Under the pieces are notes generated by a model. The model had not been told where the DNA came from and searched no databases. It saw only the letters and a program-made list of their open reading frames with translations. From Izhakiella capsodis (GTDB taxonomy: Bacteria > Pseudomonadota > Gammaproteobacteria > Enterobacterales > Enterobacteriaceae), in contig NZ_FOVC01000015.1 of NCBI RefSeq assembly GCF_900115045.1, forward strand, positions 22,163 through 46,162: a stretch of 24,000 nucleotides of DNA. The letters are read 5' to 3'. This document shows positions 3,610-4,565 of the stretch, piece after piece; position 1 is the first letter of the stretch, and the number at the start of each line of letters is the position of its first letter. Position numbers and translations under genes: made by a program.

Positions 3610-4080
3610 CTAATTCTGATATTGCTCAGATATATACTTCTGTAAAAAACTTAGTTTTGCGTTATCCCTGATGATGGCAGCTCGTAGATCGAGAACATTT
3701 TGTCCAGCATTTTTACTGAGTTGGATGGTGGAATCATAGTCCATGCTGGAGGTGGTATGATTATGGGCTTGGGACATACCGGCGCATTTTCCTCTGATGT
3801 ACATCCTGCGAGAGCCAGAGATAAGCTGACGCCGAAGTAAATTATTATTTTTTTCGGCCACATATAAAGCCTTAGTTTTAGATTCATCCAAAATCATTAA
3901 TTGCTGTTGACGTTCATGTTCCTTAGCAAACGTAATCCTTTCTAAATTATACAATTTGGCTTTGTACGAGAGCATTGACTTATATTCATAATAAACACTC
4001 CTGTAATAAAACAAGGCTAACATTAAAGATAGAAATACAAAAGTAATGCTGAAATAAAAGATATTTATGTAAGGCTTCAT
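3610..4080 (-). CDS. Rz: Rz-type inner-membrane spanin (i-spanin)
   Basis: It has an N-terminal TM segment ([22 protein letters not shown]). The C-terminal half, ...[12 protein letters not shown]...[27 protein letters not shown], parallels lambda Rz ...AGRRRLHIKAVC...LEGTQKYINEQCR. ATG 4080 overlaps the endolysin stop (ATGA). Confidence 0.85.
3651..3863 (-). CDS. Rz1: Rz1-type outer-membrane lipoprotein spanin (o-spanin) embedded in the +1 frame of Rz
   Basis: [21 protein letters not shown] carries a lipobox (LAGC), followed by a Pro-rich mature part ([14 protein letters not shown]). The gene is entirely nested inside Rz, as in lambda and P21. An alternative start is ATG 3887. Confidence 0.75.
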   Translation of the reverse strand: MWPKKIIIYFGVSLSLALAGCTSEENAPVCPKPIIIPPPAWTMIPPSNSVKMLDKMFSIYELPSSGITQN

Positions 4081-4565
4081 TTTACCCCCATTAAACACAC
4101 TTCTCTTTCAATTCTTCTTCGATCAATGAGACCTTGCAGTACCTTGCCATCGGAATACACCCATCTGCTAAGCTCATTACAAGCAGCCCTTTCTCTTCCT
4201 TGATTAAGTCTTATCAAAAGCGTGGATTTATCGAAATTATCAATACCTACATTATATACAAAAGAATATAGTGCTCCTCGAGTAGTAATAGGAATTTTTA
4301 ACTTTATTTTGGCGCCTACCTGTTTTGCTACATTTCTAATATCTCTATGAAGAATATATTTACATTCATTCTTTGTATATGTTCTATTCATTATGACATC
4401 ACCGCCTGTATGCCCGTAGCAAACAGTATCTACACCAGAAACATCCAGATAAGGGTGATATCTTACCCCCTCCAGTCCATCACTACCTGAGATAAGAACT
4501 GAAGCAATGGCCATAGCACCACCCTTTACCGCAGCTAAAACTGCTTTCGTCAAAGCAATATTCAT
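4077..4565 (-). CDS. P21-type SAR (signal-anchor-release) endolysin, GH24 lysozyme
   Basis: [54 protein letters not shown]...[14 protein letters not shown]...[14 protein letters not shown] is close to my memory of P21 R. The E-x8-D-x5-T catalytic triad is present, as is a Gly/Ala-rich weakly hydrophobic N-terminal SAR segment. The ORF track starts it at GTG 4577. Confidence 0.9.

Follow-up and report, generated by a model that had tools for sequence, protein, structure and literature searches.

Predicted phage 21-type SAR endolysin and embedded spanin genes, with no holin gene in the analysed window, beside an EpeE-like peptide module on a plasmid of Izhakiella capsodis

The endolysins of the phage 21 type carry a signal-arrest-release (SAR) domain: the tethered form of such an enzyme is inactive, and the proton motive force is thought to be needed for its retention in the bilayer (PMC9239132). 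Release of SAR endolysins occurs spontaneously at a low rate and leads to lysis even without a holin, and the presence of the holin renders the release sudden; SAR domains with extra basic residues at the N-terminus are locked in the membrane, while fewer such residues favour release (PMC9239132). In the known type 10 secretion systems (T10SS) and lytic cassettes, the cargo is released by lysis (PMC10847048); in the T10SS of Yersinia, deletion of the holin HolA abolishes export, and the hydrolase PepB is described as similar to a component of the Serratia T10SS that cleaves peptidoglycan crosslinks (PMC10847048). The Bacillus epipeptide permeabilises and depolarises membranes, dissipating the membrane potential (PMC7026026), and residue Cys223 of the radical S-adenosylmethionine (SAM) epimerase EpeE is the proposed hydrogen-atom donor (PMC8326336). 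Here, we examine positions 3610-4565 of a 24-kb stretch of contig NZ_FOVC01000015.1 from Izhakiella capsodis (assembly GCF_900115045.1, positions 22,163 to 46,162), which we call the window; an endolysin gene and the spanin genes Rz and Rz1 are located there, next to the genes of a peptide precursor-like protein and a radical SAM enzyme, all of them within a sharply bounded, low-GC stretch of ~3.7 kb (~1400-5046), referred to below as the island.

We read 3610-4565 as the intact distal part of a phage 21-type lysis cassette, i.e. a fragment of a phage late region that had received a moron-like insertion after Rz and was captured by a plasmid, and not as a dedicated secretion system; we give this reading about an even chance of being right. 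On this reading, the lysis genes would be new, divergent representatives of families already known, placed in an unusual but explicable context, and the interpretation that was put forward in the initial annotation of this DNA is partly supported.

The lysis genes and the DNA upstream of them

The following features make up the cassette and the stretch that precedes it:

4077..4565, minus strand: predicted SAR endolysin of the GH24 (glycoside hydrolase family 24)/phage 21 R type, 162 aa (Pfam, PHROG, PDB, alignment)
3610..4080, minus strand: Rz i-spanin, 156 aa, with an N-terminal transmembrane segment (PF03245, PHROG_13)
3651..3863 (frame open from 3887), minus strand: Rz1 o-spanin lipoprotein, located inside Rz in the +1 frame (PF06085, lipobox)
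4566..5046, minus strand: AT-rich non-coding stretch 5' of the endolysin gene, presumed promoter or regulatory DNA (GC 0.254, open reading frame (ORF) scan)
4895..4960, minus strand: very hydrophobic 21-aa mini-ORF MILLINISFVVVLFIFLIDLS, candidate small membrane peptide (randomisation)

The product of 4077-4565 is predicted to be a P21-type SAR endolysin, with export and tethering to be expected from its sequence. It is matched by the Pfam family Phage_lysozyme (PF00959, 1.3e-38), by the PHROG endolysin family (5.8e-51) and by the PDB entries 3HDE/3HDF and 4ZPU (Lysozyme RrrD) at ~1e-58 over residues 4-160, with the N-terminal segment included; we take 3HDE/3HDF to be the phage 21 endolysin and RrrD to be that of DLP12. 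The catalytic triad E-X8-D-X5-T, here E32/D41/T47, does not vary when the enzyme is aligned with 434 R, the lysozyme of phage 29485 and two database homologues, and the protein thereby combines the GH24 domain and the triad of the phage 21 R type. Its N-terminus has the build of a SAR domain, i.e. a weakly hydrophobic, Gly/Ala-rich segment that follows one basic residue and aligns column for column with the SAR helix of the annotated 434 R, K14 being an atypical residue within it; the single N-terminal basic residue is K7, compared with two such residues in 434 R and the 29485 lysozyme. As the start, we prefer the ATG at 4565 to the GTG at 4577, because it agrees better with the start of the homologues. 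Identity is ~60-62% to 434 R, the phage 29485 lysozyme and Salmonella/Citrobacter lysozymes, and the closest relative among 5.8 billion proteins is 62% identical.

Residue Lys14 (codon 4524-4526) lies in the middle of the SAR helix, at a position occupied by Gly or Ser in 434 R and other close homologues; when 119 homologues were crudely scanned, a charged residue was found at the SAR-helix window in only three others, two of which are apparently truncated or aberrant. We have rejected the idea that K14 makes the helix a hydrophobicity outlier, with the segment ranking 26th of the 119, inside the family range.

The endolysin gene and Rz are joined by an overlap of stop and start codons, ATGA. 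Rz is matched by PF03245 (5e-13) and, over its full length, by the Rz-like spanin family PHROG_13 (1.5e-30), and is 29-32% identical to Rz of 434 and 29485; Rz1 is matched by PF06085 (6e-10) and has a lipobox, LAGC, with Thr-Ser after the cysteine, and a conserved, proline-rich PPAW motif. An open frame of 80 codons, as that of Rz1, was attained in 52 of 5000 synonymous shuffles of Rz (~1%). The pair therefore has both parts of a two-component spanin, the i-spanin and the embedded o-spanin. In lambda, the cysteines that form the intermolecular disulfides of the spanin are C99 and C152 of Rz and C29 of Rz1, and genetics has indicated that one of Rz C152 and Rz1 C29 is enough. In the plasmid cassette, the mid-protein cysteine of Rz (C99) and the cysteine of Rz1 are conserved, and the end of Rz (3610-3625) reads ...EQYQN, with a tyrosine at the place of the C-terminal cysteine of 434 and 29485 Rz. 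The endolysin gene, Rz and the overlapping Rz1 frame are all undamaged.

These results confirm the initial annotation of a P21-type SAR endolysin with embedded Rz/Rz1, and its statement that no holin or pinholin gene accompanies them also holds for the part of the DNA in which we have searched for holins and releasins, i.e. the 24-kb window of a roughly 60-kb contig. The stretch upstream of the endolysin gene occupies the position of the pinholin gene in phage 21 or 434, and no holin or pinholin gene lies here just 5' of, and overlapping, the endolysin start, as it does in the phage 21 cassette: there is no ORF of more than 24 aa in 4578-5046 (469 bp, 25% GC), and stops occur throughout all three frames of its translation. 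A tblastn search of the whole window with the 434 S71/S68 holin and with the 91-aa protein encoded 5' of the 29485 lysozyme has returned nothing better than E ~1, and among the small, antisense and unassigned ORFs scanned, none has a holin or DUF2730 match in Pfam or PHROG. For comparison, the endolysin gene has an annotated holin or S gene at its 5' end in 21 or more of the 25 top phage matches to the endolysin, and the order in phage 434 is the canonical S71/S68-R-Rz/Rz1. The upstream DNA (4566-5046) has no DNA match in phage records, and the promoter-like matches within it are not above shuffle expectation.

Several candidates have been considered and set aside. A degraded holin upstream is not seen in the three-frame translation or by tblastn with the two holins. 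The 84-aa ORF 3264-3518 (plus strand), antisense to the precursor gene and holin-like in look, has no family match and is judged to be a by-product of the conserved sense gene; the 58-aa ORF 1463-1639 (minus strand) and the antisense ORFs within the radical SAM gene have no matches either; and the 33-aa hydrophobic ORF 3445-3546 (minus strand), with a stop that overlaps the start of the precursor gene, has not been conserved in a related contig (L001, described below), where only 16 codons are open. The mini-ORF 4895-4960 is located 330 bp 5' of the endolysin gene; no ATG ORF of at least 18 aa was as hydrophobic in any of 2000 Markov-1 randomisations of 4578-5046, and type I toxin peptides are similar to it in size and composition. 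It has no Shine-Dalgarno sequence, no homologue and no family match, and is most likely not expressed.

The peptide module and its linkage to the lysis genes

The genes that follow Rz on the same strand, and the sequences between them, are:

3449..3609, minus strand: intergenic spacer between Rz and the precursor gene, 161 bp, 22% GC, with a recombination junction at ~3575-3590
2969..3448, minus strand: precursor-like protein, 159 aa, with a helical N-terminal domain, a Val/Ala/Asn-rich C-terminal tail and no signal peptide
2942..2961, minus strand: 9-bp GC-rich hairpin between the precursor and radical SAM genes (-15.6 kcal/mol, z -2.4)
1886..2929, minus strand: radical SAM enzyme, distant homologue of the EpeE/YydG-type peptide epimerases (TIGR04078, PDB)

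The lysis cassette and the precursor gene are co-oriented and separated by the 161-bp spacer, with no terminator-like structure between them, in agreement with the earlier description of the cassette as lying directly upstream of a hydrophobic-peptide gene. This linkage is unique among 101 contexts. No homologue of the endolysin, Rz or Rz1 has been found by tblastn within 8 kb at 85 related radical SAM loci or at 10 viral loci, and in four further contexts there is no lysis-family Pfam annotation within 6 kb; a Logan contig (run SRR4233844) that is 100% identical to window 1252-5437 is not an independent copy.

A copy of the precursor/radical SAM unit is present on contig L001 (ENA ERZ27247397 k141_88988), where positions 853-2625 correspond to window 1820-3588 only, at 90% DNA identity. 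The unit abuts a frameshifted argR there, replacing its last few codons, in a contig of 35% GC that has no lysis genes; the homology begins ~25 bp past the Rz stop, and no terminal repeats are evident in the junction alignments. Given this 90%-identical copy beside argR without lysis genes, the 1.77-kb precursor/radical SAM unit is one that moves on its own. The 140 bp 5' of the precursor gene are homologous in L001, and patchily conserved. As regards shared regulation, no LexA box or shared operator has been found in the two upstream regions; an exact 14-mer repeat (1836/4604) has been rejected as an operator, such a repeat being close to the chance estimate for AT-rich DNA of this length.

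The radical SAM enzyme matches TIGR04078 over the full length (7e-27), scoring 94.7 bits against a cut-off of 300, and also matches the YydG structures PDB 8AI1-8AI6 (1.4e-14); going by its sequence, it is a distant homologue of EpeE that falls below the equivalog threshold. Across 42 homologues, residues C16/C20/C23 (CxxxCxxC), C205, C223-C224, C289 and C292 do not vary. In the alignment with PDB 8AI6, the CC pair falls on that of YydG, and an offset calculation from the tagged chain places the proposed H-atom donor Cys223 in the latter pair; the enzyme has, in this way, the CxxxCxxC motif, the second-cluster cysteine set and the H-donor cysteine of EpeE.

The precursor-like protein has a single close homologue among 5.8 billion proteins, the one encoded on L001 (94% at the amino acid level); more distant relatives adjoin related radical SAM genes. 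A structure model from a single-sequence AlphaFold run has a helical N-terminal domain and is of low confidence (predicted local distance difference test score, pLDDT, 55; tail <35). Several of the homologues carry Tat- or Sec-like N-terminal signals, while the 159-aa precursor has no export signal, and no transporter or protease gene has been recognised in the island. The 3' arm of the hairpin at 2942-2961 overlaps the ribosome-binding site of the radical SAM gene, and the hairpin is kept in L001 with one loop substitution; it may set the ratio of precursor to enzyme expression.

Relatives of the enzyme are widespread, with 172 matches in GTDB species-representative genomes from many phyla, and a composition filter has flagged an adjacent Val/Ala-rich protein in 32 of the 85 radical SAM loci fetched. 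The partner is either an upstream protein of 160-250 aa with a C-terminal tail, or a downstream protein of 300-350 aa with an internal Val/Ala-rich stretch. Some clusters add an alpha/beta-hydrolase or a ~370-aa methyltransferase-sized ORF (Pfam MTS was checked in L004 only). We have found no description of this pairing of an EpeE-like radical SAM enzyme with a Val/Ala/Asn-rich partner (L003-L007, L010-L103); it recalls polytheonamide biosynthesis, where the epimerase family differs. A three-gene version (L090-L099, IMG/VR) consists of the radical SAM enzyme, a ~300-aa Val/Ala-rich protein and a ~170-aa membrane protein, the last being bPH_5-like in Photobacterium; it is situated, in GC-rich viral contigs, between a tail-protein-like ORF on one side and repressor-like and zinc-finger ORFs on the other. 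Going by the sequences of these ORFs alone, we read the contigs as probable P2-like prophages, in which accessory or defence cargo is typically found at this position. No such enzyme has been found in cultured phage records, and PADLOC has reported no known defence system, with only generic radical SAM similarity to viperins.

Origin of the island and the alternatives considered

The window belongs to a conjugative plasmid of the F type in an Erwinia/Pantoea-like host, the genes traF, trbB, traH and traG being 89-91% identical to those of Pantoea agglomerans and Erwinia tracheiphila plasmids. The island is bracketed by insertion sequence (IS) ends, and differs from the backbone in GC content at third codon positions (GC3):

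1200..1286, plus strand: IS3-family left-end fragment, 87 nt, a 96.6% direct repeat of 5375-5461
5375..6690 (6690 end approximate), plus strand: IS3-family element with an rve integrase core, on the other side of the island
GC3 of the endolysin gene: 0.25
GC3 of Rz: 0.40
GC3 of the 159-aa gene: 0.31
GC3 of the radical SAM gene: 0.27
GC3 of plasmid backbone genes: 0.54-0.64
GC3 of the nearest phage endolysins: 0.42-0.53

The IS3-end repeats also enclose GC-normal flanks (~1287-1400 and 5047-5374, the latter with a 62-aa ORF), and a truncated psiA (745-1104) is located just outside them; the direct repeats and the truncated psiA point to an IS-mediated insertion into the plasmid leading region. 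As the low-GC DNA is uniform and foreign in composition, it was probably acquired in a single piece from a donor of low GC content. No DNA relatives of the island have been found in PLSDB plasmids or E. coli genomes, phage records give only short matches of 72-73% within the endolysin and Rz genes, and no Rz relative has been found in viral contigs. The island has no known RNA families, no tRNAs and no recognised regulator gene; a 90-aa ORF (1437-1709, plus strand) that is called in a public assembly has been rejected as a regulator or immunity gene, since neither a homologue among 1.84 billion representatives nor a family match was found for it, and may not be a gene. Elsewhere in the window, the following genes have been annotated:

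6971-7493, minus strand: ParE/RelE-type toxin and upstream partner ORF, plasmid backbone
13372-13839, plus strand: conjugation-associated SLT lytic transglycosylase, a second, unrelated cell-wall hydrolase
21987-22553, plus strand: PLD-like nuclease-domain protein, plasmid backbone

In the reading that we prefer, the peptide/radical SAM unit would have been inserted, moron-like, into the late region of a phage directly behind Rz, and IS activity would then have moved the piece onto the plasmid. By analogy, the onset of the precursor/radical SAM homology after the Rz stop resembles the moron genes that follow Rz in lambdoid phages, and phage 434 has an accessory lipoprotein gene just after Rz. 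Since the pairing with the lysis genes is a single instance, its adjacency is read as modular assembly in a low-GC donor with later capture through IS activity, and a dedicated secretion system that has been conserved is the less favoured reading.

The captured genes might still act. The muramidase would be exported via Sec, and its weakly hydrophobic SAR helix would hold it, inactive, in the inner membrane; escape would be slow and spontaneous, or fast upon depolarisation of the membrane, after which the freed enzyme would refold and degrade the cell wall, and the Rz/Rz1 complex would disrupt the outer membrane. Because SAR release is spontaneous and only one basic residue (K7) is present at the N-terminus, we infer that the three genes, once transcribed, should by themselves bring about a slow lysis with poor synchrony; a holin would not be strictly required, so that control would lie in transcription from the AT-rich, possibly silenced, DNA upstream. 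The claim of the initial annotation that the cassette needs another trigger was overstated in this respect, since SAR endolysins are released spontaneously and lyse without a holin, and phage Mu is already an example of a holin-less arrangement, with a releasin (PMC9239132). Firing of the cassette would also release the signal-less, modified peptide, in what would be an opportunistic and putative coupling.

Some observations fit this account of passive capture less well. The lysis genes are intact in spite of the distance of the endolysin from its nearest relative (62% identity), and they could have been maintained for function; the cassette and the peptide genes share a strand with no terminator between them; and, because the precursor has no export signal and the island no transporter or protease, an exit based on lysis would make sense. 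Furthermore, no partial holin remnant marks a point of truncation, and a single copy gives no measure of selection since the capture.

The intact genes, the shared strand without a terminator and the missing export signal, transporter and protease are what a domesticated release module would lead one to expect, which is the best placed of the alternatives and still, in our estimate, an unlikely one: the cassette would have been kept as the exit route of the cytoplasmic, modified 159-aa peptide through the altruistic lysis of a subpopulation, timed by transcription and spontaneous SAR release, as in the case of colicin lysis genes and lytic type 10 secretion. The absence, from the precursor, of the Tat/Sec signals that are seen in its homologues would agree with this, and there is precedent for a phage-derived cassette that lytically releases signal-less cargo (PMC10847048). 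However, the arrangement occurs once, with none of 99 related loci paired with a homologue of these lysis genes and a 90%-identical module free of lysis genes; the 140 bp of patchy homology 5' of the precursor in L001 hint at a promoter of its own; there is no recognised regulator gene in the island; and the known T10SS requires its holin. The idea is attractive, but adjacency is its whole foundation.

It is less probable again, and in our view distinctly so, that the trigger acts in trans, with a holin, pinholin or releasin being encoded elsewhere on the ~60-kb contig, on the chromosome or in a resident prophage, or with the 21-aa mini-ORF serving as a miniature depolariser. The window covers 24 kb of the contig, which leaves room for the former, and the mini-ORF was more hydrophobic than all 2000 randomisations; on the other hand, no window ORF that was scanned has a holin or releasin family match, the mini-ORF has neither a ribosome-binding site nor a homologue, and conservation in L001 is not seen for 3445-3546, the second of the small hydrophobic ORFs.

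The least probable of the explanations, and a very doubtful one, is that the peptide itself is the trigger: the EpeE-like enzyme would introduce D-residues into the Val/Ala-rich tail, and the product would insert into the inner membrane of its producer and dissipate the proton motive force in place of a pinholin, giving a sharp, peptide-gated lysis in which maturation of the toxin gates the suicidal lysis that frees it. The mechanism is coherent, because the Bacillus epipeptide depolarises membranes and polytheonamide, which is likewise epimerised and Val/Ala/Asn-rich, forms membrane channels (PMC8326336), and it would draw on the conserved H-donor and cluster cysteines of the enzyme, on the retention of SAR endolysins by the proton motive force (PMC9239132) and on the missing holin; but it is purely inferential, organisms that have the module and no lysis genes evidently tolerate it, many members of the family are Tat-signal proteins of 300 aa with a structural rather than a toxic look, the enzyme scores far under the EpeE equivalog threshold, and the tail of the structure model is of low confidence. 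The earlier suggestion that the peptide is cargo or trigger is thus met halfway: the EpeE/YydG-like enzyme and the depolarising action of the epipeptide speak for it, while the independent mobility of the unit, and the absence of homologues of these lysis genes from the surroundings of all 99 related loci, speak against it.

If the cassette is merely a captured fragment, it exemplifies the persistence of a SAR endolysin and spanins without a holin, and the travel of phage lysis genes onto plasmids together with accessory modules. A functional coupling would add to lysis-based "secretion" a design that is free of a holin and has a small modified peptide as cargo, and would link the epimerases of peptides that are made on ribosomes and modified after translation (RiPPs) with phage lysis control through membrane depolarisation; were the peptide the trigger, the conjugative plasmid would carry a holin-free system of lysis and release that is set off by a RiPP. 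In our view, the widespread pair of an EpeE-like enzyme and a Val/Ala-rich partner is a more promising lead than the lysis genes.

Comparison with known systems

The closest relatives of the cassette are those of phages 21, 434 and DLP12, the endolysins of which are ~60% identical to the plasmid enzyme, with the SAR helix and the E-X8-D-X5-T triad aligned; phage 434 also has the overlapping R/Rz junction and the embedded Rz1. These phages have an S gene where the plasmid cassette has 469 bp of non-coding, AT-rich DNA. Further differences are the Lys14 in the SAR segment, the one N-terminal basic residue and the Rz without its C-terminal cysteine, as well as the GC3 of the endolysin gene (0.25, compared with 0.42-0.53) and the location in an IS-bracketed plasmid island with no other phage genes. 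By its sequence, the plasmid cassette would be a phage 21 cassette minus S, departing from the full S-R-Rz/Rz1 arrangement only in the holin.

Phage Mu resembles the plasmid cassette in having a SAR endolysin (gp22) and a two-component spanin (gp23/23.1) with no holin (PMC9239132). It differs in having the releasin gp25, whereas no DUF2730 has been detected in the window. The dependence of Mu gp22 on gp25 is due to Lys6 and Lys7 (PMC9239132); the plasmid endolysin has Thr6/Lys7 at these positions and is, on this ground, predicted to be independent of a releasin.

The T10SS of Serratia (ChiWXYZ) and Yersinia entomophaga (YenLC) have in common with the plasmid locus that a phage-derived hydrolase and Rz/Rz1 are located, outside a phage, by a signal-less candidate cargo. 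The parallel that the initial annotation drew with type 10 secretion is nevertheless a loose one: the Yersinia system needs HolA, and there is no holin in the window; its hydrolase is described as similar to one that cleaves crosslinks (ChiX/PepB type), and the plasmid enzyme is a GH24 SAR muramidase; T10SS loci are found near transcription factors, and no regulator has been recognised in the plasmid island; and T10SS recurs across genomes, while the plasmid arrangement is a single case. The plasmid cassette is not a T10SS as currently defined.

With the Bacillus operon epeXEPAB (yydFGHIJ), the neighbouring module shares a radical SAM enzyme that is homologous to EpeE over the full length, with the catalytic cysteines conserved, and a hydrophobic substrate region, which is Val-rich in the epipeptide as it is in the plasmid precursor. 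EpeX is composed of a 32-aa leader and a 17-residue active peptide (review; PMC7026026, PMC8326336), whereas the plasmid precursor is 159 aa long and has a helical domain; the Bacillus operon has the protease EpeP and the transporter EpeAB, neither of which is present in the plasmid island; and the plasmid module resides in a Gram-negative host. As judged from these sequence comparisons, the neighbouring module is EpeE-like, and not an epipeptide operon.

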